A program made the translations under genes and the position numbers. A stretch of 64,000 nt of DNA, from positions 5,235 to 69,234 of the forward strand of contig JACKJB010000005.1 of NCBI GenBank assembly GCA_020638155.1, in the 5' to 3' direction. This document shows positions 1 through 30,251 of the stretch, one piece after another. Below the pieces are notes generated by a model, which searched no databases, was not told the origin of the DNA, and saw nothing but the letters and a program-made list of their open reading frames with translations. Numbering within the stretch: position 1 is the stretch's first letter; each line of letters opens with the position of its first letter. The DNA comes from Rhodospirillales bacterium. GTDB lineage: Bacteria > Pseudomonadota > Alphaproteobacteria > Micavibrionales > Micavibrionaceae.

Positions 1-772
1 CGACCCACTGTTCGATCCCCACCCCGTTAGGACTTTCAAGACGGGACACACGAACAACAACAATCGTCACCAGCAGGTTATCAGAGCGCTTCTGCGCCCC
101 CGACTGGTAGGTCAAAACCATCGGGATCTGGACGATCCACTGGTACCGCCCCTGAACGACACCTTCCCGGTCAAGCACCGGGGCACCGCGCGGCGCCGCC
201 GTCACAACCTGCTGATTCGCCTCGACCATCTCGATAATCCGCGACGCCTGCAGTGCTTTGGTAAAGCTTTCCCAGCCACGGCGCGTGAAATTGCGAGACG
301 CTTCCTGAAGACGGCGGCGATAATCGTTAAATCCAAAAGTCATCACCTCGGTCGCCGCCTGAGCCACCCAGGACATCAGCGCCGGCGTACTGAGGTTGGC
401 TTCGTTCAGCGCCACCATCGGTATCAGGCGCCCATCTTCGGTTGTCGCAAAATAACGGTTTTCAGGCTGGTGAATATGAACCACAAACAACATCACACCA
501 ATCAACCCCAAAATCACAAACGTCTGGAGCAAAGCAAGCTTGAGGATGGTGCGGTATCCATCACGATAAAATTCATTACGCACCATTACAGTATTGAGCA
601 TCCCGATATCATTACCCTGCGGCGCCTCTTTCGTGGGCACGGCACCGGGTTTCCCGGCAGGAGCCTTACCCGCCGCCCCCTTGGCAGGCTTAAAACTGCG
701 CGGATTCGCCTTACCACCCGCAGGACGGGGGGGCGCTTTTGGTGATTTCTGAGAAGGTTTGTCCTGAGCCAT
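1..772 (-). CDS. dotI: Type IVB secretion protein DotI/IcmL family (TraM-like), 3' end cut by the window edge
   Basis: My own minus-strand translation from the ATG at 772-770 gives MAQDKPSQKSPKAPP...NEFYRDGYRTILKLALLQTFVILGLIGVMLF (a single TM helix). A periplasmic domain follows, ending ...VRVSRLESPNGVGIEQWV. The FYRDxYR motif plus TM topology is typical of IcmL/DotI. This ORF is absent from the supplied track because it runs off the window. Confidence 0.65.
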   Translation of the reverse strand, partial: MAQDKPSQKSPKAPPRPAGGKANPRSFKPAKGAAGKAPAGKPGAVPTKEAPQGNDIGMLNTVMVRNEFYRDGYRTILKLALLQTFVILGLIGVMLFVVHIHQPENRYFATTEDGRLIPMVALNEANLSTPALMSWVAQAATEVMTFGFNDYRRRLQEASRNFTRRGWESFTKALQASRIIEMVEANQQVVTAAPRGAPVLDREGVVQGRYQWIVQIPMVLTYQSGAQKRSDNLLVTIVVVRVSRLESPNGVGIEQWV

Positions 773-1010
773 GTTTTTTCAATTATATAAAACCAAGATA
801 CGCAACATTATACATGCTGGCATCAGCAGATACCAGAGTTTGAGTATGAATAGCAAAACCAAATATCTCAAGCTCTTTATATAAGAGTTTGACAGAAAGA
901 CAAAACAAACCCTTTCGTACGGGGACGCGGTGTATTTTTGTGCACTCTCTGGAAGAGTGTGTTAAAATATTATAAGCTAAAGAGATAAACTGCGGGCAGT
1001 TGCGGGGTTG

Positions 1011-2453
1011 ATGGATATGAAAAATATTGCCATACAGGCATGGCGGTTTTTTTCCGGAACAGCACGACAAAAATCGCCAGGACGGAAGCCGGGCGTTTTT
1101 GTGCTGTTGCTTTTCTGTGTGCCTTTAGCTGCTCTTACCGCTTTTCTTGTACCAAATTCCGCTTATTCAGCTTGCGCGAACTGTCCCTGCGTCATCAATC
1201 AGCACAACATTACCCGCAGTCACATTACCAGCCAGCACGGGTTCGGTTTTTTCCTGACCGACCCTGAGGGCCTGGCTCTGGTGACCCCTCATGTCTGTGA
1301 AAGAGGTGCCGGTACGCGCGGATGGATCGGTTATGAAATGTGCCGTCACCGCGAAGAGTTTTTTGTATTCTATTTCTGGAAAGAACACGTGCTGGCCGCG
1401 ATGATGATGATGACCGAACAGCTGGTGACCGGGGCCATGAACCAGATGTTTATCGTCGGATCGTTCTTTGATGCGAAAGAACAGCTGGAAACACAGGAGC
1501 TGTTCCAAAAACTGGACGCCCAGGCCCACCGCGATTACCACCCCAGCTTCGGCATGTGCGAAATCGGCACGATGTCGCGCAGTCTTGGCGCTTCGCAACG
1601 CCGTGGCGAGTATAACGCTTACCTGCTGAGCCAACATATGCAGGACCGCCAGATGCGTACATATAATATGGGGTCTTCCGCCGGTAAAGGTTATGAGATC
1701 GTCAACCGCTGGACGGATTTTAAAGAGACGTTCTGTAACCCACACGATAACGATAACAAAATGATGCCGCCGCGCTCCGATACGGCGATATGTGGCGGGG
1801 CTCCGTTTGAAAAACGGAATGCCGATGTCGATTACACCCGCGCAATCGAGCATCCGCTAACGATCGAGGCCGATTTCAGCAATGGCGGGCTTGAGCCTGA
1901 TGAAGATGTGATCTTCGGCCTGTCAGATAATCTCTTCGGGCACGATGTCTTCGAATATTTTCCTGAAGCGTTTTTCAAACAGGATGATTACGAAGACGAA
2001 TATATGTATGTCCGGTCCATGATCGCAAAACGCAGTGTCGCGCAAAATTCCTTCAGCAATATTGTCGGGATGAAATCACAAGGTAAACCAGAATCAGCTG
2101 TCGTCCGGGATTACATGGAAAAACTTCTGGAACAGCTGGGCGTTACCGATGCAGGGGACAGGCGCAATATCGTTCACGACCTGCCAAGCTATTATGCCCA
2201 GATGGAAATGCTGACGAAAAAACTGTACCAGCGCCCGGAATTTTACACCAACCTGTATGACAAGCCGGTCAATGTCGACCGGAAAATCGCCGCGATGAAA
2301 GCGATCGGCCTGATGCAGAATATGGATCTATTCAAAAGCAAGTTACGAAGCGAAGCTTCGCTTGCTGTTTTAACGGAAATGGAAATCTTCAAAGCACAGG
2401 AAAGCGGCGCGCAGGACCGCCTGACCGGTGCGGACAGTACGGGAATTCAGTAA
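1011..2453 (+). CDS. Paralog 1 of an unnamed secreted protein family (signal peptide, N-terminal CxxCxC cluster)
   Basis: ORF 1008..2453; ATG codons at 1011 and 1017. The Sec-type leader ends ...LVPNSAYSA|CANCPCV. Shares these blocks with the next four ORFs: AAMMMMTEQLV, FFDAKEQLETQELFQ, AHRDYHPSFGMCEIGT, IAKRSVAQNSF, PSYYAQMEMLTKKLYQRPEFYTNLYDKPVNVDRK. Confidence 0.85.
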   Translation: MDMKNIAIQAWRFFSGTARQKSPGRKPGVFVLLLFCVPLAALTAFLVPNSAYSACANCPCVINQHNITRSHITSQHGFGFFLTDPEGLALVTPHVCERGAGTRGWIGYEMCRHREEFFVFYFWKEHVLAAMMMMTEQLVTGAMNQMFIVGSFFDAKEQLETQELFQKLDAQAHRDYHPSFGMCEIGTMSRSLGASQRRGEYNAYLLSQHMQDRQMRTYNMGSSAGKGYEIVNRWTDFKETFCNPHDNDNKMMPPRSDTAICGGAPFEKRNADVDYTRAIEHPLTIEADFSNGGLEPDEDVIFGLSDNLFGHDVFEYFPEAFFKQDDYEDEYMYVRSMIAKRSVAQNSFSNIVGMKSQGKPESAVVRDYMEKLLEQLGVTDAGDRRNIVHDLPSYYAQMEMLTKKLYQRPEFYTNLYDKPVNVDRKIAAMKAIGLMQNMDLFKSKLRSEASLAVLTEMEIFKAQESGAQDRLTGADSTGIQ

Positions 2454-2455
2454 TC

Positions 2456-3976
2456 ATGGCTAAAAAGAGCGTCGCATATACACAGAAAGGCCTCAGGAAC
2501 ACCCTGATGGCCTGCCTGTTTGCGATCTCCGCTCTTTTATTCAACCCGGAGCCGGTGAACGCCGGCTGCGGTGACAACTGCACATGTGTACCAATCGCCC
2601 ATGGTTCCGTGATTCCTTTTCCACCGGGCTTTTCTAAAGGCGACATAGGAAACAACACCGATATCCGTGGCACGATCCGGCAGGAACACGAGATGACAAC
2701 CCGACATATGGATATGGAATTCGACGATATGGAAGAGTTCTTAGTCAACGAATCCAACCCCAGGGACCCGACCCGGATCTGGGGCGGGTATCTCTGGCCC
2801 GCATGGATGATGATGAATGAGCAGCTCGTGCACACGGCCATGTACCAGATGCTGATCCTCGGCAGCCTGCTCGATGCCAAAGCGCAGCTTGAAACCCAGA
2901 CCCTGTTCCAAAAACTGACCAATGAAGCGCACCAGAATTATCATACCGATCACGAAATGTGCGTCGTCGGCACCAATGTTCGCAGTCTGGCCGCCGCTGA
3001 ACGGCGCGCCGAATTCACGACATTCGTTCTCAGCCAGCGCAGCATCGACCGGCAGATGGCCAATCTGAACAGCGCCGCCGCCCGCGGCGAAGATGATGAT
3101 GAATGTTTCCGGCTGCGGCAGTTCCGCAAGCGGTACTGTGATAACCGGGACAATAACGAACATATGCAGTGGATCTGCGATCCGCAGGCTGCCGCTACTG
3201 CGGCTGGCGTACCCTTCCAGCCTTTGCGTCCGGAATGCGTGGCACCAAATATCGCAATTACCAATGAAACAAAGAACAAAGATATAAGTTATGCCCGGAC
3301 GATTGACCGCACAAAAACCCTGAATATCGATTTTGTCGCCCCGGCAGCAACGCCAACCGAAGACGAAGAAGATATTTTTGCGCTGGCCAGCAACCTGTAT
3401 TCGCACGATGTGATGTTCAGGATGCCCGAATCATCCCTGCGCCAGCGGCAAAGCCAGGATGAAATCCTGGATATGCGCGGCATCGTCGCCAAACGCAATG
3501 TCGCCGAACACAGCTTTAATACCATCGTTGGCCTGCGGGCGATGGGGAACGAAGAGTCAAAAGACATTACCTACCCTTATATGAAACTGATTATGGAGCG
3601 GCTTGATATTGGCGATGACAGGGGCTGGCCCGAAGAAGAGCTGGCCCGTTTCCTGAAACCCGAACCAAGCGAGCTTGGCGAGGCTGATGACCCTGATCTC
3701 TGGCGCCCCAGTTATGATGCGCAGATGGAAGTCCTGACCAAACGGCTTTTCCAGTCCCCTGATTTTTACGCCAACCTGTATGACGAGCCGGTCAATGTTG
3801 ACCGTAAATCCGTGGCCCTGCAGGCCATCGGCCTGATGCAGGATTTTGATACATGGAACAGCTACCTGCGCACCGAAGCGATGCTGTCGGTGATCCTGGA
3901 GCTGGAGTTATTGCGCCTGAACAATCAGGTCCAGAACCAGCTGGGCACCGTACGAAGCGGCGGACTGGAGTTGTAA
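2456..3976 (+). CDS. Paralog 2 of the same secreted family (N-terminal CxxxCxC cluster)
   Basis: The ATG lies 2 nt after the paralog 1 stop. Leader ...NPEPVNAG|CGDNCTCV. Blocks: AWMMMNEQLV, LLDAKAQLETQTLFQ, AHQNYHTDHEMCVVGT, VAKRNVAEHSF, PSYDAQMEVLTKRLFQSPDFYANLYDEPVNVDRK. Confidence 0.85.
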   Translation: MAKKSVAYTQKGLRNTLMACLFAISALLFNPEPVNAGCGDNCTCVPIAHGSVIPFPPGFSKGDIGNNTDIRGTIRQEHEMTTRHMDMEFDDMEEFLVNESNPRDPTRIWGGYLWPAWMMMNEQLVHTAMYQMLILGSLLDAKAQLETQTLFQKLTNEAHQNYHTDHEMCVVGTNVRSLAAAERRAEFTTFVLSQRSIDRQMANLNSAAARGEDDDECFRLRQFRKRYCDNRDNNEHMQWICDPQAAATAAGVPFQPLRPECVAPNIAITNETKNKDISYARTIDRTKTLNIDFVAPAATPTEDEEDIFALASNLYSHDVMFRMPESSLRQRQSQDEILDMRGIVAKRNVAEHSFNTIVGLRAMGNEESKDITYPYMKLIMERLDIGDDRGWPEEELARFLKPEPSELGEADDPDLWRPSYDAQMEVLTKRLFQSPDFYANLYDEPVNVDRKSVALQAIGLMQDFDTWNSYLRTEAMLSVILELELLRLNNQVQNQLGTVRSGGLEL

Positions 3977-5364
3977 TGAGAAACAATATGAAGCACGGCA
4001 AAACAAGAATATATTCTTCGAGAACTGTCATGCTCCGCATGTTTATGCTTGCGGCTCTCGTCCTGTTTTCTTTTGCCTCCCAAAGCTGGGCCGCATGTTG
4101 TCCTTGCCCGGGATGTAATCAATGCGTCTTTCCGCAACGTGACGCGACAATCGCACATATTCAGACCGAACATAATACGACCCGCAATTTTATCACCCAG
4201 CAGTTCCGGTTTCATCAGAACTGGCTGTTCGGTGCCAATACATTCTACGGTGGAGCACGAGACAGCTTTTTCGAGTTACATGTCCTGCCGGCCCTGATGA
4301 TGATGACCGAGCAACTGGTTACGACCGGCATGGAGCAAATGTTTATTCTCGGCACGTTTTTCGATGCCAAGATCCAGCTGGAAACCCAGCGCCTGTTCCA
4401 GGAAAAAGAAGCCGAAGCCCATAAAGATTATCATCCGTCTTTCGGCATGTGCGTCATCGGCACCAATGTCCGCAGTATGGCCGCCGCCGACCGTAACGGC
4501 GAGTATACCAGCTATGTGCTGAGCCAGCGGTCGCAAGACCGCCAGCTCGGAATCTATAGCGGCCAGGCCGCTTATAGCGCCGAAATGGACCGGCGTGGCA
4601 GGATCGAACAGTTTAAAAAACGCTACTGCGATACCGATAATAACAGCCAGGATTTAACCGAGCTGTGCGACGCGGGTAAAGCGCCTGCGGCGACTGTCAA
4701 CAGCGATATCGATTATATGCGCACCGTCGATATGAACCGGACGCTGAATATCGATTTTACCGACGATGTCGCCACAAATGATGAAATCGATGTGCTGGCG
4801 CTGGCCAGCAACCTGTTTTCCCATGAGGTCATGAATAAGACGAACTGGACCACAGGGGAGATGGAATCAGCCGAAGGTCCTTATCTGGACCTGCGCTCTA
4901 TCGTTGCCAAGCGTAGTGTCGCTGAGAATTCATTCAATGCCATTATCGGTCTGAAAGCGCAAGGTACTCCCATTTCCGAACAAACGATCCTGTTTACCGA
5001 AAAAGTGCTGGAACAGTTCGGCGTTAATGACGGTGATGACAGGCTGCGCATGATTGGCGGGGTTCTCGGTGACCGTGAAACTCCGAACCGGCGCCCAAGC
5101 TATTTCGCTCAGTTAGAAGTCCTGGCGCAGAAGATTTATCAGGACCCCGAATTTTATACCAACCTGTATGACAAACCGGCCAATGTGCAGCGTAAGGAGG
5201 TCGCCATGCAGGCGATCAATCTGATGCTGGAGCGCGACATGTATAAAAACGAGCTGCGCAGCGAAATGGCCCTGTCGATATGGCTTGAAATGGAACTGAT
5301 GAAATACCAGACCGATATTCAGAACCGCCTGAGTTCGCTGAAGGAAAAATATGAACAAAACTAG
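3976..5364 (+). CDS. Paralog 3 of the same secreted family (N-terminal CCxCxxCxxC cluster)
   Basis: I placed the start at the ATG of a TAATG overlap with the paralog 2 stop (3974-3978), in frame with track ORF 3853..5364. Leader MRNNMKHGKTRIYSS...FASQSWAA|CCPCPGCNQCV. Blocks: ALMMMTEQLV, FFDAKIQLETQRLFQ, AHKDYHPSFGMCVIGT, PSYFAQLEVLAQKIYQDPEFYTNLYDKPANVQRK. Confidence 0.85.
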   Translation: MRNNMKHGKTRIYSSRTVMLRMFMLAALVLFSFASQSWAACCPCPGCNQCVFPQRDATIAHIQTEHNTTRNFITQQFRFHQNWLFGANTFYGGARDSFFELHVLPALMMMTEQLVTTGMEQMFILGTFFDAKIQLETQRLFQEKEAEAHKDYHPSFGMCVIGTNVRSMAAADRNGEYTSYVLSQRSQDRQLGIYSGQAAYSAEMDRRGRIEQFKKRYCDTDNNSQDLTELCDAGKAPAATVNSDIDYMRTVDMNRTLNIDFTDDVATNDEIDVLALASNLFSHEVMNKTNWTTGEMESAEGPYLDLRSIVAKRSVAENSFNAIIGLKAQGTPISEQTILFTEKVLEQFGVNDGDDRLRMIGGVLGDRETPNRRPSYFAQLEVLAQKIYQDPEFYTNLYDKPANVQRKEVAMQAINLMLERDMYKNELRSEMALSIWLEMELMKYQTDIQNRLSSLKEKYEQN

Positions 5365-6868
5365 GCAGAAATATCAGAGCCGCTTTCAGAAGGCAGCGCG
5401 ATCGCTAAAAAAACTGAGTGTTTTAGCGATCCTGATTGGTTTTGCATTTATTTTTCTTGCCGCAAAACAGCCGGCCCAGGCTGCGTGCGGGTGCTGTGAT
5501 TGCTGCGTCAGTGTCGTTATCCCGCACCACGAAGTCACCCGCCAGGCCGTAACCGACGAACATGTTCATCTGCGTGTTGATGCGTTCGGCGTATCGGCCG
5601 GTATTCTCGCCTTCCCGGCCCGGCCCAACCCGCCACCGAATTTCTGGCGACTGCAGCATTACGAGAAATGGCTTTTGGACGTTTTCTTCGACGATTACAT
5701 TCGCCCGGCCCTGATGATGATGAGCGAACAGCTAACCTCGGTCATGATGGAACAGATGCTGATTACCGGCACGTTTTTCGATGCCAAGAAACAGCTGGAA
5801 ACACAGCGCCTGTTCCAGGAACTCGAAGCGCGTACACACCGCGATTACCACCCCAGTTTTGGTATGTGCGAAATCGGGACCAGCACCCGCAGTCTTGCTG
5901 CCGCCGAATTTAACAGTGATCTGTCTATGATGGTTCTGAATAAACGCTTCATGGACCGCCAGCTCGGGAACGGCTCTTCCGTTGGCGCTAGCGGACCGGG
6001 GATCGACCGGATCAGTAACGATGTCGCCGGACTAAAAAGCCCGCATAACCGTTTAGGATTTTTCCTGAACAATACCTGTGATGATAACGATCTGGACAAG
6101 GTTCTGGGAAGAGCCGCGACCGGGATGTTCCTGTGCGAAAACCCGCCCGAGGCTAATGGCTGGGTTAACCGCGATATCGACTGGAACAATACGGTCATGA
6201 GTCCGCGAACGGTCAATGTCGAATTCGACCGTCCCAATACGTCTGATAACCGCCGGGTTTTTGAAATGGCGAACTACCTTTACGGGCATACCGTCTTTAC
6301 CCGTCCCGAAGGGGAGATGCTGGGTTACGAACAGAACCAGGACAATTATCTCGATTCCCGCGCCGTTATCGCCAAACGCAGCGTCGCCCAGAACAGCTTT
6401 GATTCTATTATCGGTCTGAAATCCCGCGGGACGCACCGGGACGACCCCGGAGCCCGGCCGATCAGCTCGGAAGATACGGGCGAGTTCATGCGCTTTTTCC
6501 TGGTCGAGTTGGGCTTCCCGGAAGGGGATAAAAACCCGTATCACCGCTATATGTTCCACAAAAACGAGCTGAAAAACGAACCGCCACTTGACGGCCAGAC
6601 CGTCCAGATCAGCTATTACGGGCAGATGGAAGTGCTGGCGAAAAAGATTTACCAGCGCCCCGAATTTTACACGCAATTATACGACAAGCCGGTGAACGTC
6701 AAACGTAAGGCGGCGGCGATGCAGGCGATCAAACTGATGCTGGATCGTGATATTTTCGACAGCCAGTTACGGGCAGAAGCGATCATGTCGATGATCCTTG
6801 AGCTGAAAGTCGTAGAGGAACAACAGAATATCGAGAACGCGCTCGGCATCATGAAAGAGAAGTTTTAG
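5351..6868 (+). CDS. Paralog 4 of the same secreted family (N-terminal CxCCxCC cluster)
   Basis: The ATG overlaps the paralog 3 end by 14 nt. Leader ...FLAAKQPAQAA|CGCCDCCV. Blocks: ALMMMSEQLT, FFDAKKQLETQRLFQ, THRDYHPSFGMCEIGT, IAKRSVAQNSF, ISYYGQMEVLAKKIYQRPEFYTQLYDKPVNVKRK. Confidence 0.85.
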   Translation: MNKTRQKYQSRFQKAARSLKKLSVLAILIGFAFIFLAAKQPAQAACGCCDCCVSVVIPHHEVTRQAVTDEHVHLRVDAFGVSAGILAFPARPNPPPNFWRLQHYEKWLLDVFFDDYIRPALMMMSEQLTSVMMEQMLITGTFFDAKKQLETQRLFQELEARTHRDYHPSFGMCEIGTSTRSLAAAEFNSDLSMMVLNKRFMDRQLGNGSSVGASGPGIDRISNDVAGLKSPHNRLGFFLNNTCDDNDLDKVLGRAATGMFLCENPPEANGWVNRDIDWNNTVMSPRTVNVEFDRPNTSDNRRVFEMANYLYGHTVFTRPEGEMLGYEQNQDNYLDSRAVIAKRSVAQNSFDSIIGLKSRGTHRDDPGARPISSEDTGEFMRFFLVELGFPEGDKNPYHRYMFHKNELKNEPPLDGQTVQISYYGQMEVLAKKIYQRPEFYTQLYDKPVNVKRKAAAMQAIKLMLDRDIFDSQLRAEAIMSMILELKVVEEQQNIENALGIMKEKF

Positions 6869-6876
6869 ACAGGAAT

Positions 6877-8145
6877 ATGGAGAGCAGGATAAAACAAAGT
6901 ATGAGGTTTTTGCAATGCGCCGCGCGGCGCATGGTGCTGCTTTTTGTCATGCTCGGCTTATTGATTATGCCGGCGGCGCAAATCGCCCGCGCATCACATC
7001 TTGACGCCCCCGTTCTTGGCAACGCCGACGGCGCGCTTGACAGTAAGCCGCATGTCAACGGTATATACCGCGCCATGCGGGATAACTGGCTCGCGGCATG
7101 GATGATGATGACCGAGCAGTTTGTCTCCGTGATGATGCAGCAGATGTTCATTGTCGGAACATTCCTTGATGCCAAGCAGCAACTCGAAGTCCAGCGCCTG
7201 TTCCAGCAGCTTGAAGCCGAAGCGCATAAGGATTTTCACCCGGGCTTCCAGATGTGTGTCTTTGCCACCAACGTCAAAAGTCTCGGTGATGCCGATTTCC
7301 GCTCATGGGAAAACAGCATGATGCTGGATACCATTATCGAAAAACGCGAACATCTGCATGCAGGATTATCGACAGCGCCGGGGATTCCCGCCGATATCAC
7401 ACACCGGATCAAGATGTTTAAAGACATCTATTGTGATCTCGACCAGAATAACCGGCAGGATGAGCTGCTTTGCGATGGCACCGAAGGGCCGTTCAACCGC
7501 ATGACAAAAGATGTCGATTACCCAAGGGTCATCGACAATGTCTATACGATTGACGATGTCAACTTTACCGACGGGGCACATACCGATACGGAAAAAGACA
7601 TTATGGCGCTGTCCCGCAATCTTTACGCTTCCCCGGTGTTCGATTTCATGCCGGAACAGCTCATCAATGAAACCGCCGGACAAAATCTGTTCATGGAAAC
7701 CCGGTCCATCCACGCCATCCGCAGTGTTGCACGGCGCAGTTTTACCAATATTGTCGGCCAGAAAGCCGAAGGTGATCCGGCGGAAATATATGAAGTCCGC
7801 CCATTCATGTTCGGGATTGTCCATGAACTGGGCGTCCCGGTTGACGAACTGATCGATTTCCTCGGTGAGAATCCGAGCTATTTCGCCCAGATGGAAGTCC
7901 TGACCCGTAAAATTTATCAAAGCCCTGATTTCTTTACAAACCTGTACGATAAACCGGCAAACGTCCGCCGGATGGGGGTCGCCCTGCAGGCGTTTGAGCT
8001 GATGCAGGACCGCGACCGTTACGAGGCAGCCCTGCGCCGAGAAATGCTGATTTCCCTGATCCTGGAGCTTAAGCTTCGTCATTATCAGGAAAACGTCAAC
8101 GACGTCCTCATGACCTCGATCAGTCACAAACCCGACGGCCGATAA
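6877..8145 (+). CDS. Paralog 5 of the same secreted family (shorter; lacks the N-terminal Cys cluster)
   Basis: ATG 8 nt after the paralog 4 stop, preceded by AGGAA. Leader ...LLIMPAAQIARA. Blocks: AAWMMMTEQFV, FLDAKQQLEVQRLFQ, AHKDFHPGFQMCVFAT, PSYFAQMEVLTRKIYQSPDFFTNLYDKPANVRR. There is no Cys cluster after the leader. Confidence 0.85.
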   Translation: MESRIKQSMRFLQCAARRMVLLFVMLGLLIMPAAQIARASHLDAPVLGNADGALDSKPHVNGIYRAMRDNWLAAWMMMTEQFVSVMMQQMFIVGTFLDAKQQLEVQRLFQQLEAEAHKDFHPGFQMCVFATNVKSLGDADFRSWENSMMLDTIIEKREHLHAGLSTAPGIPADITHRIKMFKDIYCDLDQNNRQDELLCDGTEGPFNRMTKDVDYPRVIDNVYTIDDVNFTDGAHTDTEKDIMALSRNLYASPVFDFMPEQLINETAGQNLFMETRSIHAIRSVARRSFTNIVGQKAEGDPAEIYEVRPFMFGIVHELGVPVDELIDFLGENPSYFAQMEVLTRKIYQSPDFFTNLYDKPANVRRMGVALQAFELMQDRDRYEAALRREMLISLILELKLRHYQENVNDVLMTSISHKPDGR

Positions 8146-8146
8146 C

Positions 8147-8162
8147 TGGCACTATCCTTGCA
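8147..8162 (+). promoter_or_regulatory. Sigma-54 (-24/-12) promoter upstream of flgK
   Basis: TGGCAC-TATCC-TTGCA matches the TGGCAC-N5-TTGCW consensus exactly. It lies in the 79-nt gap between the paralog 5 stop (8145) and the flgK ATG (8225). Confidence 0.75.
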
Positions 8163-8224: not shown

Positions 8225-11020
8225 ATGGGCTTAAGTGGCTTGGATTCAGCATTATCAGGCCTTCGCGTGGCGCAGCAGCAGCTGAGCGTCATTGCGAATA
8301 ACGTCTCGAACGTCAGCACCGAAGGCTATACGCGGAAAATTTTGCCGCAGCAAACCGTCGCGATCGAAGGGCAGGCCGTCGGCGTTTCGGCGCGGCCGAT
8401 TATCCGCAATGTCGATCTTAACTTAGAGCGTGATTTCTGGACCCAGGTCAGTACCGTTAACGCCCTGGAAGTCAAAGCGAAATACCTGGACCGGATCCAG
8501 AATTTCCACGGCTCTCCCGACCTTGAAGTTTCGATTGCCGCCGAGCTCGGCAAACTGCGTGACACATTTGCCGCGCTGGCCGACAGCCCTGAAGATAACT
8601 TCCTGCAGCGCGAAGTCGTCGACCAGGCGGCGCTGCTGGCCGGGAAAATCAATAAATTCGCGGCCCTGATTACCGAAATGCGCAATGACGCGCAGGATGA
8701 AATCGAAGCCACGATCGACAGCATCAATACGCGGCTGGAAAATATTGCCGAGCTGAACCACCAGATCAAATTCAACACAGCCAGTGGCAAAACCACAGCA
8801 GAGCTGGAAGACCAGCGCGACCAGATTATCAAAGAACTTTCCGCCGATATCGATATCAGCTTTTTCACCCGCGGCGATGGCGTCATGGTGGTGCAAACCT
8901 CAACCGGAGTCCAGCTTGCCGATGAACGCGCTGAATCGCTTTATTACAACAGAACGCCGGTAGGCCCAAGTACCTATTATCCCGACCCGAACAATCCAAT
9001 CGCGAACGGCATTTTTGTCGGCGGCAGCCCTGCCGATAACCCGGTCACGATCGATATCACCCAAAGCGGGATCAGCGGCACCCTCGGCGCGCTTTTAGAG
9101 CTGCGCGATGAAATCCTGCCGGAACAGCAGGCGATGCTTGATGAACTCGCGCATAAAATGTCCACCCGCTTTGCCGAACAGGGGCTGATCCTGTTTACCG
9201 ATGCCAGCGGACAAGTCCCGCCGGACAGCAGCGCGAACGTTATCGGCACAGTCGATCTGACGGCGCTGGGCGGGCTTGATATCGCAACCGGGCCGAATAA
9301 CCTGTTCACCGTTACCCTGAATAATGGCGGCGCTTCCCCTGCCGCTGTTTCATTTCAGGTCGACCTGACCATCGGCAACACGCCGGCGCTGCTCGCTGCG
9401 GAGATTAACAACCAGATTTCGCAATTGCCCGATGCCTATAGCGGCACAATCGCAACGATCGATGCCAACGGGTTTTTAAATATCACGTCCGATTACGACA
9501 TCACCATTAATGCAAACGGCGCGGGTGAAATCGGCGATGCCGGGCTTGCGGTACTCGGCCTGAGCCGCGGTACTGAATATGCCGCGCCCAAAACAAATCC
9601 TCTGACCCCGGTGCCTTATGTCGGTTACGCTTCTGAAATTCGTGTTAATCAACTGGTGCTCGATGATAACCGTCTTGTACAGCAGGGTACGATCGGGACA
9701 GACCTGCCGGTCCAGCAAGGCTCAAACGAAGTGATCCGCCGGATCGTCGAGTTTGTGTTCGGTGATGTCGAGTTCCAGGAAGCCGTCGGCTCTGTTGACC
9801 TGCGTTCTTCCGCGCTTGGTGATTCATTGCAGGATTATCTTGGCATTTACTCGCAGAACAGCATTACAGGTACGCTTGATTTGTCTTCTTACGGCGATGT
9901 CCAGGCTTTGATTAATGCAGGCGGAGAAACATTCCAGCCGCCGACCGGCCCTGTGCTTGACCAATTCACCCTGACTTTCGATGATCCGCGCACTGGTTTG
10001 CCCGCGCAGACTTACTATCTCGATCTTGAAGAAATCCAGACAAACTTTCCTATTGGCGGTGCTATTACTAACGCAGCAGACCAGATCGCAGCAGCGATCA
10101 ATGCCTTACCGCTTGCCGGGAGCGCTCTTAGCGATCCGCTACCGCCTGATGCCGCTTTTGACGTACAGGCCAGTGTCAACGCCTATGGCCAACTGGTTAT
10201 AGAATCACGCGCGAACATTACAATTGATGCCAGCTTTCCAGCCGGGGAAACTTTTCCTCCCGCCGTCACGCCAGATGGCGGGATGGGACAGGACGGGCTT
10301 GATTTCCTCGGCCTGACACAAGGCACATATCAGACAACCGATCCTTATATTGACATACAGATCGGCAACGATCCGCCGGTAAGGGTGACGATTGAGCCGG
10401 GCGATGATGAAACCGACCTGTTCAATAAGCTGAACTTTGCAATCGCGCCGCCGGGCGTTCCAGGCCTGGCGATTGACGACAGCCTGACAGACCCGGCCAG
10501 CGACGGTTTTTTAAGATTGCGCCCGGGCGATGATCCGAACAATCCCGGCTTTGGCGGGGATCTGAAAATTGTCGGCGGCCCGTTTGTTTCCGAAGGCGGC
10601 ACCAGCGGGACAGCCCTTGGCACCGATATTATTACCGCGCTGTTCGGCGTTCCCAACCCGGTTGTCGATGTGCCTCATGAGATTTCAACCGGGACGGGCG
10701 CTTATGAATCGTTCCGCCGCGACCGGCTGGGTCCGAATGCGCTGCTGAGCACCGGGATCATCAGTTCAACCAACCTGATCGATTTTGCGCAGAAAATGGT
10801 GAACCGCCAGACATCGGAAAGCATCGCGATCGATGCGCAGATCCGCGATGAAACCTCGTTCCGCGACCTGCTGCAACGCAGGCTTTTGGATGAGTCCGGC
10901 GTCAATATCGAAGAAGAGCTGTCGCAGTTAATTGTCGTGCAAACCGCATTTGCCGCGGCGGCGCGGGTGATTTCCGCGATCGATGAAGAATTTCAGGAAC
11001 TGCTGAATGCAGTGGCCTAA
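8225..11020 (+). CDS. flgK: Flagellar hook-associated protein 1 FlgK (long form, 931 aa)
   Basis: The N-terminus MGLSGLDSALSGLRVAQQQLSVIANNVSNVSTEGYTRK and the C-terminus EEELSQLIVVQTAFAAAARVISAIDEEFQELLN are the canonical FlgK terminal helices. A large central insertion accounts for the length. Confidence 0.92.
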   Translation: MGLSGLDSALSGLRVAQQQLSVIANNVSNVSTEGYTRKILPQQTVAIEGQAVGVSARPIIRNVDLNLERDFWTQVSTVNALEVKAKYLDRIQNFHGSPDLEVSIAAELGKLRDTFAALADSPEDNFLQREVVDQAALLAGKINKFAALITEMRNDAQDEIEATIDSINTRLENIAELNHQIKFNTASGKTTAELEDQRDQIIKELSADIDISFFTRGDGVMVVQTSTGVQLADERAESLYYNRTPVGPSTYYPDPNNPIANGIFVGGSPADNPVTIDITQSGISGTLGALLELRDEILPEQQAMLDELAHKMSTRFAEQGLILFTDASGQVPPDSSANVIGTVDLTALGGLDIATGPNNLFTVTLNNGGASPAAVSFQVDLTIGNTPALLAAEINNQISQLPDAYSGTIATIDANGFLNITSDYDITINANGAGEIGDAGLAVLGLSRGTEYAAPKTNPLTPVPYVGYASEIRVNQLVLDDNRLVQQGTIGTDLPVQQGSNEVIRRIVEFVFGDVEFQEAVGSVDLRSSALGDSLQDYLGIYSQNSITGTLDLSSYGDVQALINAGGETFQPPTGPVLDQFTLTFDDPRTGLPAQTYYLDLEEIQTNFPIGGAITNAADQIAAAINALPLAGSALSDPLPPDAAFDVQASVNAYGQLVIESRANITIDASFPAGETFPPAVTPDGGMGQDGLDFLGLTQGTYQTTDPYIDIQIGNDPPVRVTIEPGDDETDLFNKLNFAIAPPGVPGLAIDDSLTDPASDGFLRLRPGDDPNNPGFGGDLKIVGGPFVSEGGTSGTALGTDIITALFGVPNPVVDVPHEISTGTGAYESFRRDRLGPNALLSTGIISSTNLIDFAQKMVNRQTSESIAIDAQIRDETSFRDLLQRRLLDESGVNIEEELSQLIVVQTAFAAAARVISAIDEEFQELLNAVA

Positions 11021-11038: not shown

Positions 11039-12115
11039 ATGACTTTTGTATCGACATTGGGACAATCGCTTGACCAGATCGAGCGCATTAAAATCACGCA
11101 GTTGCAGCTGGCCAGTTTCCAAAGCCAGATCGCGACCGGCAAAAAGACACAGACCTTTAGCGGGCTCGGCAATGATGTGATCGCGTCCAAGCGGGCGCGG
11201 GAAAATTTCGCCAAACTGGATAACTACGTCAATAATATCGATATCGCCGACCGCCGCATAAAGATGATGTTTTCTGCGCTGGAAGAAATAAAAAACCAGG
11301 CCGAAGATGTCCTGAACGCAATTGAAATCCAGACGCAACAGGGCGAATACGAAATTGAGGCCGTCAGCGATCTTGCCCGCAATACGGCGGACTTCCTGCG
11401 CGATCTTATTAACACCCGCGATGGCGACCGCTATTTGTTCGGCGGCGCGGAGACCGTCGATCCGCCGCTTTCCGGCAGCGGCACACTGGAAACCTATATG
11501 CAAAAGCAGCTGAATGACTGGGTCACAGCAGCAATCGATACAGACCAGCTCATTGCAAGTTACGGTGATAGCGCAGCCCTGACCGATACGATCATCGGTT
11601 ATTCCGCGACCTTAAGCAGCGGCAGCGCCAAGAATGTTTATGTCCGCGTCGAGGATTACACCGAGATCAATTACACCGTCTTTGCCAACCATGACGGCGT
11701 CCGCGATATCCTCGCCGGGGTTAATATGCTGGCGCAGATTGACCAGGTGCTTGATGAAGTCACGCTTGATCCTGATGATCCGGCAACAACCATCACGGCA
11801 CCGGGGGCAACGCAGCAGGAACAGAACGATAATTTCTACAAGTTCTTTAATGACATGGCGGCGATGATGAACCGCGCGCTGGATGCGATCGACAGCGAGC
11901 TGTATTCGCTCAGCCAGAGTCAGGCGCAGCTTGATAAAATCAAGCAAAGCCACAAGCTTGACCAGAATATCCTGCAGGATACGATCAGCGAAGTGGAGGA
12001 TGCCGATATGAACGAAGTCGCTGTCAAGCTGAACGCGCTGCAAATCCAGCTCGAAGCGTCGTACCGGGTTACGGCGTCGATTTCGAGCCTGAGCCTTGTG
12101 AACTTTATCAGCTAA
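11039..12115 (+). CDS. flgL: Flagellar hook-associated protein 3 FlgL
   Basis: Immediately downstream of flgK, with RBS AAGGAG. Has flagellin-like N- and C-terminal helices (...LQLASFQSQIATGKK...; ...MNEVAVKLNALQIQLEASYRVTASISSLSLVNFI). Confidence 0.88.
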   Translation: MTFVSTLGQSLDQIERIKITQLQLASFQSQIATGKKTQTFSGLGNDVIASKRARENFAKLDNYVNNIDIADRRIKMMFSALEEIKNQAEDVLNAIEIQTQQGEYEIEAVSDLARNTADFLRDLINTRDGDRYLFGGAETVDPPLSGSGTLETYMQKQLNDWVTAAIDTDQLIASYGDSAALTDTIIGYSATLSSGSAKNVYVRVEDYTEINYTVFANHDGVRDILAGVNMLAQIDQVLDEVTLDPDDPATTITAPGATQQEQNDNFYKFFNDMAAMMNRALDAIDSELYSLSQSQAQLDKIKQSHKLDQNILQDTISEVEDADMNEVAVKLNALQIQLEASYRVTASISSLSLVNFIS

Positions 12116-12121: not shown

Positions 12122-13534
12122 TTACTGCGTAGACAGCGAATAATTCTCGATCACCAGCACAGACGGGCCGCCCGGCAGATTCGGATGCAGCCGCCCCAGC
12201 GGACGCGGGTCCGAATCGTTGTAGCGCATAAGGATATTGGTCACGACATCGGGGAACGTGCCGTGCATTTTTACCGCTTCCGGCAATTCGTAATCATAAG
12301 CCGAATTCCACAGCATCGCGACATTGGCTTCATTGGCCCATCGGCTGAGAACGCTTTTCAGACCGGTCCCTTTTTCAGCCTGCCAAAAGCGGATTTCCAG
12401 CGGATCAAGCACGGGGCCGCGGGCCGCGGCACTGTCCGTTGCCGGCGCCATAGAAGGCGTCATCGCAAGCGGCAGGGCCACAGGTCCGCCGGGCATTTCT
12501 TTTGCGGGGGCCTTCATCATGCCGGGCGGCAAAGACGGGGGCGCGGCAAGCGGCGGGGGAGCAGGGGCATCCATCATGACCGCCAGATCCGCCGGGTCGT
12601 CAAATTCGGAAACTTCTTCAGGCTGCTCCGGCCCCTGCGGGAACAACGGTTCCGGACGCTGGCGGCGCGGGTATGATTGCACCGCATCGTCCTGTTCGGC
12701 CGCATCCATCATCATCGGCGTATCCTCGGCCATAATGACCGGGACATTCATCGGGTCAGCGTCCGCCATCACCGGTTCATATGCAAAAGCTTCATTCACG
12801 AGAGGCGGAGCGGGCATGTCCGGGGTTAGTTGCGGCATGGCCACCGGGTGACCCGCTGGCGGCATCATCATCGGCGGGACACTATCCGTTACGACCAGCG
12901 GATTATCCATCATAACCGGAACCGTTTCGGGTTCCCGCTTACGGATCCAGACGCTGTTATCGCTGATAACGACTTCCATATCCTGCGGCCGGACGGCATC
13001 GGACAGGACTTCATCCCATGGCTTGCCGCCGCTCCAGGAAACACGCAGGGCCGGATCGATATTCGGATCGAAAGCATAAGAAAAACGCGGCGGCACGATC
13101 TGGCGCATCGCCATCACCAGCGGAATATCTGTGCCGAAACCGACCGCTTCTTCATAAACCGGGACCGCCGGAACGGCCGGTGCCGCCGGGGCGGCCTCGG
13201 CCATGTCAGCCGGGTTCTGCGCGAACGGATTTTCCTTTAAGACCGGGATCACAGACGGCGCAGCCGCTCCCGGCATCATCGGTTCGCTGGTAATTTCAGG
13301 GTGGGCATAAGGATCGATGCGCGGCTGGGACCCCGGCGCGCCGGTTTTGTGCATTTCCATCGTCATTGTCGGCGGGACAACAGGCACCATCGCCGGCTTG
13401 TTTGCCGGCGGGGTCCATTCAAATCCGGCATATGCCGGGACCGTAACCGCCAAAACCAGGGCAAAAATTCCCGCCGTTGCGGTTTTGCCTTTTTTAAGAA
13501 AATATCTGTTTACCATCGTCGCTTTCCTTACCAT
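12122..13534 (-). CDS. Secreted Pro/Met-rich protein with two TcpQ/PilL-like domains
   Basis: Signal peptide ...ALVLAVTVPAYAG. The central block GFGTDIPLVMAMRQIVPPRFSYAFDPNIDPALRVSWSGGKPWDEVL and the C-terminal block LKSVLSRWANEANVAMLWNSAYDYELP...VIENY resemble the TcpQ / R64 PilL C-terminal domain. It is the last gene of the dotDCB-icmT strand block. The start could instead be M7 (13516). Confidence 0.6.
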   Translation of the reverse strand: MVRKATMVNRYFLKKGKTATAGIFALVLAVTVPAYAGFEWTPPANKPAMVPVVPPTMTMEMHKTGAPGSQPRIDPYAHPEITSEPMMPGAAAPSVIPVLKENPFAQNPADMAEAAPAAPAVPAVPVYEEAVGFGTDIPLVMAMRQIVPPRFSYAFDPNIDPALRVSWSGGKPWDEVLSDAVRPQDMEVVISDNSVWIRKREPETVPVMMDNPLVVTDSVPPMMMPPAGHPVAMPQLTPDMPAPPLVNEAFAYEPVMADADPMNVPVIMAEDTPMMMDAAEQDDAVQSYPRRQRPEPLFPQGPEQPEEVSEFDDPADLAVMMDAPAPPPLAAPPSLPPGMMKAPAKEMPGGPVALPLAMTPSMAPATDSAAARGPVLDPLEIRFWQAEKGTGLKSVLSRWANEANVAMLWNSAYDYELPEAVKMHGTFPDVVTNILMRYNDSDPRPLGRLHPNLPGGPSVLVIENYSLSTQ

Positions 13535-13657: not shown

Positions 13658-13960
13658 TCAGCCATAATCGCGCATGCGGCGATACGCATAGGTAAACAGG
13701 GCATTACGGCGATCACCGACCATCCAGGACCGCATAGAGCGCAACGCCGCCGGATATGTCAAACCAAACCGCTCAAGGATATAAAAGAAGATGACGATCA
13801 ACAGGGTCAACACAATCGTTACAGGGCGGGCATAAACCAGCAGGATAAAAAACGGCAGGGCCGCTCTTGCATCGAGACCGAAAAACCGTACCGGACGCAT
13901 CGTATTCCGCCAGTGCCAGTTCTTCTTCTCAATCTCAAGATCGTCTTGTGCTGTCGCCAT
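13658..13960 (-). CDS. icmT: Type IVB secretion protein IcmT (TraK-like)
   Basis: A 100-aa, two-TM protein. HWRNTMRPVRFFGLDARAALPFFILLV...ILERFGLTYPAALRSMRSW matches the IcmT signature. It lies directly downstream of dotB. Confidence 0.8.
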   Translation of the reverse strand: MATAQDDLEIEKKNWHWRNTMRPVRFFGLDARAALPFFILLVYARPVTIVLTLLIVIFFYILERFGLTYPAALRSMRSWMVGDRRNALFTYAYRRMRDYG

Positions 13961-14050: not shown

Positions 14051-15217
14051 TCACTCGCCGCCGCCACCGGTACTGGATGCCAGCATCAGATATGCCCTGC
14101 GGTCGATATGCCCGGCTTCGAACGCCAACCGCGCCGATTGGGACATGGTGCGGCCGTAATTCGGGATCGCCCGCTGGATATTCGGTCCCCATTCCTTGAA
14201 ATCCATATCCAGCAGCTTTTCGCGGATTTCATCAGGGAATGTCATCCATTCGCGAATCCCTATACGGCCCCCGCCGATTTTGGACACGAGGGATTGCGTG
14301 ACGATCATCCTGATCGTTTCCATCAGCGCATAAGCCCGCTCGGCCCGTTCGTCGGTTTCAAAAGTCGAAATCATCCGCTGGACCGTTGCGGCAACGCCAA
14401 TCGTGTGCGTCGTCGTATAGACCGTGTGCCCGGTCTGGGCAGCTTCAATCGAGGCCGAGATGGTTTCCCTGTCCCGCGATTCCCCAACCAGAATCACTTC
14501 AGGCTTGCGCCGCAGCGCATTCCTGACACCGCGATCAAATGACGGCAGGTGGCGGGGAATTTCCGTTTGCGCCACAAGAGAGCGCGGACTTTCGATCGTA
14601 TCGTACACATATTCAATCGGTGCCTCATAAGTCAGCATCTTACCGCAGCCATGCGGCCGCTCCAGCAACATCCGGCACCCGGCTGCGAGTAATGTCGTTT
14701 TCCCTGACCCGGTCGGCCCGGTAATAATCACCATTCCCTGGCGCGGGGCCCAGTGGTTGATGACGTGCTCTTCGACATTCAACGCCTTCATGGTCGGCGG
14801 TTCGGTCGGCAATACCCGCATTGTTACCTGCGCCGCATCCCGGCCACGGGAAAGGATCGCGGTAATATTGACCCGGAACCGAATGCGCGTATAGCGATCG
14901 GGCCGGACTTCGTAAGACAGATCAAGGTCGTTGGCCCCGGCAAGACGGGCCTGTGCCTCGGGTCCGTAAATTCTTATCAGGACGGCCGCCATATCCGCAG
15001 CATCCAGAGTCCTGAATGTAGCAGGATAAAGGACGCCGTCAATTTCCTGGTAAACCGGACGGTCTGACTGGAAAGTAATATCGGAAGCATTCTGTTTAAC
15101 CGACCACAGCAGGAATGGATCGAGCGTTTCACCAGTAAAACGGCCATGCTCATCAGGCCATGTCTGGGCCTTGTTTTCCTTGCCTTTAAGAAGGCTTATC
15201 GGTTTGCGGGCTGCCAT
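14051..15217 (-). CDS. dotB: Type IVB secretion ATPase DotB (PilT/VirB11 superfamily)
   Basis: Walker A motif ITGPTGSGKTT and PilT-like Asp and His boxes (LVGESRD, TGHTVYTTTHT). Sits in dotD-dotC-dotB synteny and overlaps the dotC end by 22 nt. Confidence 0.85.
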   Translation of the reverse strand: MAARKPISLLKGKENKAQTWPDEHGRFTGETLDPFLLWSVKQNASDITFQSDRPVYQEIDGVLYPATFRTLDAADMAAVLIRIYGPEAQARLAGANDLDLSYEVRPDRYTRIRFRVNITAILSRGRDAAQVTMRVLPTEPPTMKALNVEEHVINHWAPRQGMVIITGPTGSGKTTLLAAGCRMLLERPHGCGKMLTYEAPIEYVYDTIESPRSLVAQTEIPRHLPSFDRGVRNALRRKPEVILVGESRDRETISASIEAAQTGHTVYTTTHTIGVAATVQRMISTFETDERAERAYALMETIRMIVTQSLVSKIGGGRIGIREWMTFPDEIREKLLDMDFKEWGPNIQRAIPNYGRTMSQSARLAFEAGHIDRRAYLMLASSTGGGGE

Positions 15218-16035
15218 TTTTCCGTCCCCGGTATGAATTCGGGCACACCCGTAATTTCAACGGCCCGGTCACCAACCCGCATTTTCGACCCTCCGCCGGT
15301 CACACCCCGGTCAATCTGCAGGGCATAAGGCGGGGAGACCATCCCTTGCGCCAGCAACATGCGGTAACGGACCATCCCCTGGTAATGCGCCGTCAACTGG
15401 TCGAGATCCTGCTGGAATATCTCGTTGGCCTGGTCAACACCTTGTTCCCAGCCTTCTAAAACCCAATCCATCCAGAAAGCGCGCTCATAATCATCATTCG
15501 GGCGCAGGATATCGGGCGGCGGCGTCACTTCACCCCATTCACGCCACAGGTAATTGCGCCAGTCACGGGCGGCACTGACGATATTGGCATTACGGCTGAT
15601 ATTATAGACCCGGTCGGCCACGGCAGCTTCCTGACCGCCGGTATCGATAATCATCGCGTTGGTTTGCTCGGATACAATCGGCGGTTCAATCAAAAGACCG
15701 GATGGCGCAGGGATCAGAAGCTGGCGGAAATCGAATACTTTATCGAGATAGCTCGAACGCGTCTTAAGTTCCTCGCGGATATTATAAGTGCGCCAAGCCA
15801 GACCGCCGCGCGCGCCATAGGACAACGCCGCCTCACGCATCGCATCCAGACGGATATCGATCGGCATCCCCGAAGCATCATCGACGACCATATTGAGTTT
15901 CGGCACCATTTGCAGTTCAAACAGCGCCGGCGGAGATGAAAAATCCTCGTCTTCCGACATCGCTGCCGCAACCTGTCCGGCCAGACAAGGGACCGACAAA
16001 CCCAGCACCGCGATGAATAGCAGAAAACGTTTCAT
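15196..16035 (-). CDS. dotC: Type IVB secretion outer-membrane-complex protein DotC (TraI-like)
   Basis: Signal peptide MKRFLLFIAVLGLSVPCLAG. Motifs as I remember them for DotC: DIRLDAMREAALSYGARGGLAWRTYNI, WRNYLW, YRMLLAQGMVSPPY, GVTGGG. Confidence 0.85.
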   Translation of the reverse strand: MKRFLLFIAVLGLSVPCLAGQVAAAMSEDEDFSSPPALFELQMVPKLNMVVDDASGMPIDIRLDAMREAALSYGARGGLAWRTYNIREELKTRSSYLDKVFDFRQLLIPAPSGLLIEPPIVSEQTNAMIIDTGGQEAAVADRVYNISRNANIVSAARDWRNYLWREWGEVTPPPDILRPNDDYERAFWMDWVLEGWEQGVDQANEIFQQDLDQLTAHYQGMVRYRMLLAQGMVSPPYALQIDRGVTGGGSKMRVGDRAVEITGVPEFIPGTEKWQPANR

Positions 16036-16044: not shown

Positions 16045-16596
16045 TTACCCTCCCACGCCCGTATTGGGCGCATAGTTAATTTCAACGATCTTACGGCGGC
16101 CATCGACACGGACATCACCACGGACGCCGAGCTGTAGCCCCAAGCTGCGCAGGACATCAATGACCGGCATATTTTCAACATTGACGGACACCACAACCGG
16201 AACCGGCGGCGGAGTCCCGATCACCTGGAACGCGTACCCGGACCGGCTTGCCAGTTTTTGCGCGATCGGCTCAACCGGGCCGACCCAGTTCACCGTAATC
16301 GCCCGGCGCAGTTCGACCGGCGCGTTTTCAATCGGGGAAACCGAAACTTCTGGAGAGCGGGCCTGCTCCACAGCCGCCAGCGTTTCCAGCGCCACAGAAG
16401 CGCGGTCAGCCGCATCCGCCAGCATCATCGAGACCTTATCGGGAGACGCGACCAACTGCGGATGATCCCCTTCCACAGGTTCGGAGTAAGAGGACGAGCA
16501 CGCCGTCAGCGCCGCCATCATTGCAACAGCGGTATACAGCCGCCCTTTGCGTAGTATTTCTATAGTTTTGAGCATTAACATGCGATAACACCGCAA
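16045..16596 (-). CDS. dotD: Type IVB secretion lipoprotein DotD (TraH-like)
   Basis: Lipobox ALTAC|SS. The C-terminal secretin-N0-like block ITVNWVGPVEPIAQKLASRSGYAFQVIGTPPPVPVVVSVNVENMPVIDVLRSLG matches DotD. Several in-frame Met codons make the exact start uncertain. Confidence 0.85.
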   Translation of the reverse strand: MRCYRMLMLKTIEILRKGRLYTAVAMMAALTACSSSYSEPVEGDHPQLVASPDKVSMMLADAADRASVALETLAAVEQARSPEVSVSPIENAPVELRRAITVNWVGPVEPIAQKLASRSGYAFQVIGTPPPVPVVVSVNVENMPVIDVLRSLGLQLGVRGDVRVDGRRKIVEINYAPNTGVGG

Positions 16597-16733: not shown

Positions 16734-17147
16734 CTAGCGGGTCGCTTTCACCAGGCCGTGTTTTTCCATCGAGGCAATGACCCGATATTTATACCCGTTG
16801 CCGATATGCGGTGTACGGGAATGATAATGCGCGATCGCGCGCGATAAATCCCTGGTTTCATCAAGATGGGTGCGCAAAATCCATGCCGACACCCCGACAT
16901 TGGTACAAGGGTCATCCCTTACCCACCGTTTCGCGGTTTCGGTGCTTACCCCCCACTGCGCCGCCAGCTCAGGCAGCCAGATCGTGTTGATCTGCATCGG
17001 CCCGAGATCGTAACTGCCATTCTGGTTCGGCCCGACCTGCTGGCCGACCTTCCCGGCCTCGACCTGGTAAATCCCCAGCAGCACCGCAGGCGGAATACTG
17101 TAGGTCTGGGCGGCGAGAAAAATACATGCAGCAAGAACTTTCCCCAT
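16734..17147 (-). CDS. Small lytic transglycosylase (SLT domain; VirB1/IagB-like)
   Basis: Motifs YQVEAG (catalytic Glu), YDLGPMQIN and AHYHS. Its ATG overlaps the upstream gene's stop (TAATG). Confidence 0.8.
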   Translation of the reverse strand: MGKVLAACIFLAAQTYSIPPAVLLGIYQVEAGKVGQQVGPNQNGSYDLGPMQINTIWLPELAAQWGVSTETAKRWVRDDPCTNVGVSAWILRTHLDETRDLSRAIAHYHSRTPHIGNGYKYRVIASMEKHGLVKATR

Positions 17148-18253: not shown

Positions 18254-18361
18254 CGTGGTTTCTTAAAATTACAGACCTTTTTATATATAAAGCGAGCATA
18301 CCCTCCCAGACAAGAGGGCATCACACCCCATCCCGTACAATTCGAGAAGGCAGAACGGATC

Positions 18362-30239: not shown

Positions 30240-30251
30240 AGGAGAAAACGC

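Follow-up and report, generated by a model that had tools for sequence, protein, structure and literature searches.

The window analysed here, a stretch of 64,000 nucleotides from a Rhodospirillales bacterium of the Micavibrionaceae (GenBank assembly GCA_020638155.1, contig JACKJB010000005.1, positions 5,235 to 69,234 of the forward strand), carries near its left end five tandem paralogous genes of an unnamed family, lying among genes of a Dot/Icm-type, or type IVB, secretion system (T4BSS). The paralogs (locus tags H6867_02015 to 02035 of this Rhodospirillales metagenome-assembled genome) follow one another on the same strand. Open reading frame (ORF) coordinates confirm both this arrangement and the four junctions given in a preliminary description of the locus, in order a spacing of 2 nt, an overlap of the form TAATG, one of 14 nt and a spacing of 8 nt. 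For paralog 1 we use the ATG chosen by NCBI, which gives 478 amino acids (aa); an ORF opening at TTG 1008 gives 481 aa. The five genes are best explained as one operon, divergent from icmL. The region between the two, compared over 67 loci, contains AT-rich words only and no conserved 8-mer operator.

Table 1. Features of the paralog array and its surroundings (window coordinates; E-values refer to the named profiles).
Feature	Position	Strand	Remarks
icmL/dotI	2-772	-	PF11393 T4BSS_DotI_IcmL, E = 9.3e-66; 5' part, runs past window start; divergent from array
icmL-paralog 1 intergenic region	773-1016		AT-rich, divergent; presumed promoter region of paralog operon
Paralog 1	1017-2453	+	upstream type, position 1, 478 aa; identical to family member P0002, H6867_02015
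Paralog 2	2456-3976	+	upstream type, position 2, 506 aa
Paralog 3	3976-5364	+	upstream type, position 3, 462 aa; start overlaps paralog 2 stop (TAATG)
Paralog 4	5351-6868	+	upstream type, position 4, 505 aa; overlaps paralog 3 by 14 nt
Paralog 5	6877-8145	+	terminal type, 422 aa; lacks the N-terminal Cys cluster
σ54-type promoter TGGCAC-N5-TTGCA	8147-8162	+	for flgK-flgL; directly past paralog 5 stop codon
flgK (flagellar hook-associated protein 1)	8225-11020	+	TIGR02492, E = 7.7e-75; PF22638, PF00460, PF06429; not a family member
flgL-like (hook-associated protein 3 / flagellin family)	11039-12115	+	Flagellin_N, Flagellin_C; TIGR02550, E = 7.5e-16, below cut-off
TcpQ-domain protein	12122-13534	-	PF10671, E = 2.6e-13; exported, C-terminal TcpQ; same position in other loci
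icmT	13658-13960	-	NF038220 IcmT_TraK, E = 4.9e-27
dotB (ATPase)	14051-15217	-	TIGR02524, E = 1.6e-111, below equivalog cut-off
dotC (TraI-type lipoprotein)	15196-16035	-	PF16932, E = 2.4e-80
dotD	16045-16596	-	NF033882, E = 1.6e-30, below cut-off
DsbG/DsbC-type periplasmic disulfide isomerase	18362-19222	-	NF008657, E = 5.7e-38; dotD-side end of locus; syntenic in L011

The five proteins are clearly related to one another. Identity to the first copy is 36-44%, the alignment of all five holds 77 invariant columns, and even the weakest pair tested gives a BLASTP E = 3e-66, far beyond chance. None of the five matches a profile in Pfam, NCBIfam or PADLOC, in agreement with the earlier statement that the family could not be placed. 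The shared sequence blocks listed in the preliminary description are present and collinear but less exact than given: the first, A[AL]MMM[TSN]EQL, also allows W, paralog 2 reads LLDAK and HTDHEMC and paralog 5 reads HAIRSVARRSF at the corresponding places.

A heuristic leader check supports the Sec-type leader with a basic n-region claimed for each paralog. In all five, an n-region of net charge +4 to +8 is followed by a 15-residue hydrophobic core and an AxA-type cleavage site, and by the same kind of check no membrane-spanning or hydrophobic segment occurs beyond the leader. The conserved cysteine pair of the preliminary description is likewise real, but the two belong to a set of three cysteines that are invariant across 75 family members. 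A further CxxCxxC-type cluster just past the cleavage site is 76-89% conserved and missing from paralog 5. AlphaFold models of paralog 3 (pLDDT 81, pTM 0.60) and of mature paralog 5 (pLDDT 81.8, pTM 0.69) consist of helices throughout, and those at the N- and C-terminus are very long. Over 420-506 aa, the family layout comprises a signal peptide, a long and highly conserved N-terminal helix, a Cys-bearing middle and conserved C-terminal helices; conservation peaks in the helix at 99-151 and in the C-terminal helices, and the mature N-terminus is variable. We find that the paralogs are best explained as Sec-exported, disulfide-bonded, all-helical proteins of the periplasm or surface, as predicted from these features. 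The DsbC-like gene that had been noticed nearby is indeed a DsbG/DsbC-type isomerase, and its product is a plausible folding helper for the cysteine-bearing paralogs.

On the left, icmL/dotI diverges from the array as previously stated. Leftward of icmL the contig continues with icmK, icmE, icmG-like, icmC-like, icmJ and icmB, the canonical order of Dot/Icm region II. On the right, the dotD-dotC-dotB-icmT group is present, but flgK-flgL and a TcpQ-domain gene, which the first description had not seen, intervene between it and the array. DotC and IcmK of this system match Legionella PDB chains with E = 2e-44 and 5.5e-52, respectively, and G+C content is even across the T4BSS locus.

An exhaustive profile search (E <= 0.001) collects 1,347 family clusters at 50% identity, and named members are all called "hypothetical". 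Scanning one genome per species yielded 287 confirmed stretches, the best 78 of which were analysed as loci. Nearly all of these 78 carry the label Micavibrio, Pseudobdellovibrionaceae or unclassified Alphaproteobacteria, and one belongs to the complete genome of the cultured Micavibrio aeruginosavorus HCB189. The proteins of the window, used as probes on all loci, reveal a single recurring layout, which consists of icmL on the minus strand, two to five family copies followed by flgK and flgL on the plus strand, and then the TcpQ gene, icmT, dotB, dotC and dotD on the minus strand. In nearly all of the 78 loci the array adjoins icmL, the icmT-dotB-dotC-dotD group, or both. This layout has exceptions: in two loci (L011 and L066) flgK-flgL is absent and the T4BSS genes directly follow the array, in a third (L007) flgK-flgL is inverted, and two more (L055 and L057) are without the icmL side. 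The HCB189 locus (L024; NZ_CP195303.1, 2008170-2029279) carries icmL, two family copies, icmT, dotB, dotC and dotD.

The family is confined nearly entirely to the T4BSS locus of Micavibrio-like Alphaproteobacteria, and the association with a Dot/Icm-type locus proposed earlier from one array holds over nearly all of the best 78 loci. Rather than occurring mostly in genomes without T4BSS genes, the family lies in the T4BSS locus in essentially all of the ~80 species-level genomes that offer enough flank. T4BSS genes are themselves scattered around the chromosome in this lineage. In one genome, for example, icmB (L094; JACKJA010000002.1, 519652-542663) lies ~350 kb from the locus holding icmL, the array and dotB (L001; 870596-891951). 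When the M. aeruginosavorus genome was published in 2011, its authors stated that they had no evidence for type IV secretion, in contrast to the HCB189 chromosome with its icmL, icmT, dotB, dotC and dotD. A passing remark in a 2022 survey credits seven marine Micavibrionales with Dot/Icm-type systems, as detected by MacSyFinder. In the literature that we searched, no paper describes the family or a multi-copy IcmX.

Comparison of arrays reveals a strict internal order. Among 56 complete arrays, copy number is two in a single array, three in 24, four in 9 and five in 22, and none exceeds five. When 225 copies taken from 57 arrays are placed in a neighbour-joining tree, those from the last position fall into a single clade that is both pure and complete (57/57), and in five-copy arrays positions 1 to 4 each form a clade of positional orthologs (17-18 of 23 arrays). 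The duplications are therefore old, with one terminal-type copy per genome: each array contains exactly one such copy, always last, together with one to four upstream-type copies. The five copies of the window, which the preliminary description considered an unusual five-fold amplification should they be IcmX/TraW-like, are thus no one-off event but one state (in the range 2-5) of an old ordered array built from two ancient subfamilies. An apparent six-gene array (L001, Rhodospirillales H6868 genome) was rejected, as the extra gene (12702-13367, 221 aa), inserted between copies 4 and 5, encodes an exported but unrelated protein.

The two subfamilies also differ in length. Copies of at least 550 aa are found at the terminal position in 37 of 56 arrays and among only 15 of the 164 copies at other positions, and the terminal-type extensions are mostly low-complexity repeats or linkers placed behind a leader of their own. 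N-terminal extensions of 100-650 aa occur in roughly one third of the best 150 clusters of the family and are mostly GLDLxGIxNL-type repeats or Gly/Ser/Ala-rich linkers (P0112, P0184, P0136 and P0170 are among the extended members). Enzyme domains are occasional, namely Peptidase_M23 in P0112 and a GDSL lipase in P0184, and a Pfam search of 10 long members returned a domain in just one, the GDSL lipase of P0184. Regions that by eye resembled SLT (P0014, P0021) or M23 (P0170) domains were not confirmed by Pfam.

We compared the models of paralogs 3 and 5, which are ~38% identical, with 350,542 PDB chains using Foldseek. A 417-residue chain of entry 9ngy ranks first for both, with a probability of 0.97 for paralog 3 and 0.63 for paralog 5, and all other matches remain at or below 0.33 and 0.11, respectively. 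Entry 9ngy is the in-situ DotA-IcmX protochannel, in which the extended domain of DotA alone spans residues 154-685. Since its length fits IcmX (466 aa with the leader) and not DotA, we take the matching chain to be IcmX. The comparison of predicted structures suggested earlier thus places IcmX first for both models, if weakly. IcmX is described as a VirB5-like pentamer atop DotA, for which the authors propose an outward movement on activation, and it consists of a signal peptide, a conserved helix at the N-terminus, an extended domain and a C-terminal set of helices that is again conserved. The conservation profile of the family fits this layout qualitatively: in both, the long helices at the N- and C-terminus are conserved and the remainder is more variable.

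Further similarities lie in size, export and evolutionary rate. Among the known Dot/Icm components, IcmX alone is at once Sec-exported, all-helical and ~450 aa long, and the family, at ~420-500 aa with a Sec leader, shares these properties within a Dot/Icm-type locus. Among the Dot/Icm proteins of Legionella, conservation is lowest in IcmX (51%, compared with 94% for DotB), especially at its N-terminus. Similarly, the family has the lowest median identity at the Micavibrio-like locus (~41%, compared with 74% for DotB, 70% for IcmL, 63% for DotC and 71-87% for IcmB), so that in each case the protein is the fastest-evolving of its system. As far as the locus has been sequenced, we saw no other gene resembling traW or icmX.

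Taken together, we favor the interpretation that the family comprises diverged and amplified IcmX-type central cap subunits of the T4BSS that have moved beyond sequence recognition, and we give this a probability of roughly 55%. The family would then be the Micavibrio-like counterpart of IcmX (TraW in IncI plasmids; VirB5-like), the single IcmX gene having been replaced by an ordered array of one to four upstream-type copies followed by one terminal-type copy, the latter often with a long N-terminal repeat or linker extension and sometimes with a hydrolase domain. The assignment draws on gene context and on a structural match that is modest, not on sequence similarity. We infer homology, or at least functional equivalence, to IcmX, as well as mixed oligomers and a role at the predator-prey interface. 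The DsbG-type isomerase in the locus supports this interpretation, as does the precedent of trwJ, a VirB5-type gene that is tandemly duplicated in the Trw system of Bartonella, where the copies have been read as variant surface-exposed forms.

A number of observations weigh against the IcmX assignment. The 9ngy match is itself weak (TM 0.20-0.26, rmsd 9.5 Å, E 0.05-0.08), proteins built of long helices easily give spurious matches, and the query models, being homologous, are not independent of each other. At the level of sequence, a search of the PDB with the family profile yields nothing up to E = 10, an hhalign comparison with TraW, either that of R64 or a profile of nine plasmid sequences, gives a probability of 1.5-1.7%, and reciprocal HMM ranking with filters off against IcmX/TraW is negative in both directions. 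We note that these sequence tests are of low power, because in a control the TraW profile also fails to find IcmX in the PDB. The position of the array is non-canonical, as icmX/traW usually lies beside dotA/traY, and R64 Tra probes detect neither dotA/traY nor a canonical icmX in any fetched locus, and neither lies beyond icmB on two long contigs. Finally, one locus (L033; JADLAT010000021.1, 54699-76099) holds three copies and flgK-flgL between housekeeping genes, with SecB on the left and an M16 peptidase and ComM on the right, and has no T4BSS gene within 21 kb of the array. The IcmX/TraW-like origin raised in the preliminary description has gained real, if modest, support from fold, from size and leader and from evolutionary rate, while a sequence link to either TraW or IcmX is missing.

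IcmX of Legionella and Coxiella is encoded by a single gene beside dotA/icmV/icmW, whereas the family forms arrays of two to five ordered paralogs between icmL and the dotB operon, and both the N-terminal Cys cluster and the long N-terminal extensions of terminal copies are found in the family and not in IcmX. TraW of the IncI1 plasmid R64 resembles the family in belonging to an I-type gene set and in having ~400 aa, a leader and cysteines, and a short hhalign stretch pairs ETQRL...C...YC...C of both families without reaching significance; traW is, on the other hand, a single-copy gene between traV and traX-traY. The analogy with TrwJ/VirB5 would consist in a target-contacting tip component that is amplified into tandem variant copies, and the helix layout of IcmX has been called VirB5-like. 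No VirB5 structure is found among the listed Foldseek matches. The analogy appears to be a functional resemblance only: TrwJ/VirB5 proteins belong to type IVA systems and are much smaller (~220 aa, a three-helix bundle with a small appendage), while the family is twice the size and sits in a type IVB locus. Moreover, the Bartonella trwJ copies are recent and vary between lineages, in contrast to the ancient fixed order and two old subfamilies of the array.

Several of the above points would be equally expected if the family were a lineage-specific envelope accessory of the T4BSS unrelated to IcmX, such as a periplasmic scaffold, a prey-recognition adhesin or a gatekeeper that arose in Micavibrio-like bacteria and whose helical likeness to IcmX is superficial. 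An accessory would be just as confined to the T4BSS locus, and the low TM-scores, the missing sequence link to TraW or IcmX and the departure from the canonical icmX position all fit it. Yet it would leave unexplained why IcmX is the single top PDB match for both models, well separated from the others, and why size, leader, helix layout and rank in evolutionary rate are all as in IcmX, and the system would still require an IcmX, of which none is seen. We consider an unrelated accessory unlikely.

The paralogs could also be prey-directed proteins, toxins or carriers of lytic domains, that are exported by Sec, leave the cell by another route, for example type II secretion, and are merely neighbors of the T4BSS. 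The Sec leaders, the fusion of some members to a Peptidase_M23 or GDSL-lipase domain and the fast evolution of the family are in keeping with this, and the organism has relatives among obligate predators, which secrete many hydrolases. In fact, however, the conserved part of the family is a long-helix bundle without an enzyme signature, and most members have no enzyme domain. The single terminal-type copy, always last, and the positional orthologs resemble assembly subunits and not an arsenal, and a presumed divergent promoter region common to icmL and the array has been kept in 67 loci. On these grounds we regard such a role as very unlikely. The related suggestion that the paralogs are a set of T4BSS substrates has also become less likely, since Dot/Icm effectors are not recognized through Sec leaders.

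The neighboring flgK-flgL genes, whose nesting between T4BSS operons is kept across a whole order, are a transcription unit separate from the array. In the window their σ54 promoter is a perfect one and bounds the region exclusive to the paralog transcription unit. Over all loci, flgK has an equivalent motif 50-140 nt upstream in 63 of 63 (background rate, 0.012 per 250 nt) and the array in 0 of 67; the 1.48 Mb of fetched loci contain 71 occurrences in total, 63 of which are these flgK sites. As flgK-flgL is under σ54 control of its own, the array is not a flagellar operon, and from promoters and synteny we reject a flagellar reading of it. The sole annotated flgK of M. aeruginosavorus ARL-13 (GMV2433) is located far from the main flagellar clusters, and for this reason we consider the nested flgK to be the genuine flagellar gene of the cell. 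That the paralogs instead serve the flagellum as an accessory specific to this lineage, such as a component of the periplasm or basal disk inherited along with flgK-flgL, is highly improbable: flgK-flgL does lie directly downstream on the same strand with no terminator between, and L033 retains the two together away from the T4BSS, but the separate promoter, the loci that retain the array with the T4BSS and have flgK-flgL absent or inverted, the lack of Flg_bb_rod, flagellin or any other flagellar domain in the paralogs (Pfam, NCBIfam), the Foldseek probability of only 0.01 for a hook-filament junction structure and the Sec leaders all argue against it. Flagellar axial proteins carry no Sec leaders.

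Returning to the IcmX-type cap that we favor, the rule of one terminal copy per array, combined with the pentameric state of IcmX, invites a more specific model. In this candidate arrangement, each machine would bear an asymmetric hetero-pentameric cap made of one terminal-type and four upstream-type subunits. The four upstream-type subunits would come from one gene used four times, as in M. aeruginosavorus, or from four genes, as in the window, and at the tip the one terminal-type subunit would expose its N-terminal extension, with repeats or a hydrolase, which may breach or grip the prey envelope. The machine would then be one that targets bacteria. The array data are compatible with such a cap, as copies number two to five and never more, the terminal-type copy is single and always last, and extensions are concentrated there, but the ceiling of five copies is only suggestive as a sign of a pentamer. 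We consider this specific arrangement quite unlikely as it stands.

What can be stated solidly is that the family is real and lineage-wide, and that it bears on how epibiotic predators attack their prey. Micavibrio and its relatives fix themselves to other bacteria and feed on them from outside. Their lineage possesses a Dot/Icm-type machine that is inherited vertically and scattered over the chromosome, and the family is the most variable and the most amplified part of it. Should the paralogs be IcmX-type cap subunits, contact with the prey would be expected of them, and they would represent the first amplified and subfunctionalized cap in a type IVB system, and M. aeruginosavorus, with two copies only, would offer a tractable genetic entry point. 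Should the hetero-pentamer also prove true, a bacterium-targeting Dot/Icm machine would be the device, long sought in epibiotic predators, by which they feed or kill. For annotation, the interpretation would provide a name and a testable role for ~1,350 unnamed protein clusters.

We further note several minor features of the locus and its surroundings. The TcpQ-domain protein is a fast-evolving (~35% identity), Pro/Met/Ala-rich protein of 470 aa that lies beside icmT in many loci. Past dotD, positions 17147-19222 (minus strand) hold a 368-aa protein with no family match, no leader and a proline-rich tail, together with the DsbG-type isomerase, and both are syntenic in L011. Three genes considered as possible dotA or icmX were rejected: the 368-aa ORF beside dotD and an 828-aa ORF (44176-46662) are neither DotA- nor IcmX-like, and a 382-aa gene past icmB in L094 matches neither profile. 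The remainder of the 64 kb consists of housekeeping genes. Two adjacent DUF6782 putative metallopeptidases and the 828-aa protein, which is without a family match, occupy 41571-46662 (minus strand), in or beside a stretch of lower G+C (0.47-0.49 at 44-48 kb); this region could encode secreted effectors or be acquired DNA. A sharp dip in G+C at 30001-32086, to 0.44 from ~0.55 around it, coincides with a gene for a NERD-domain protein (31013-32086, minus strand).

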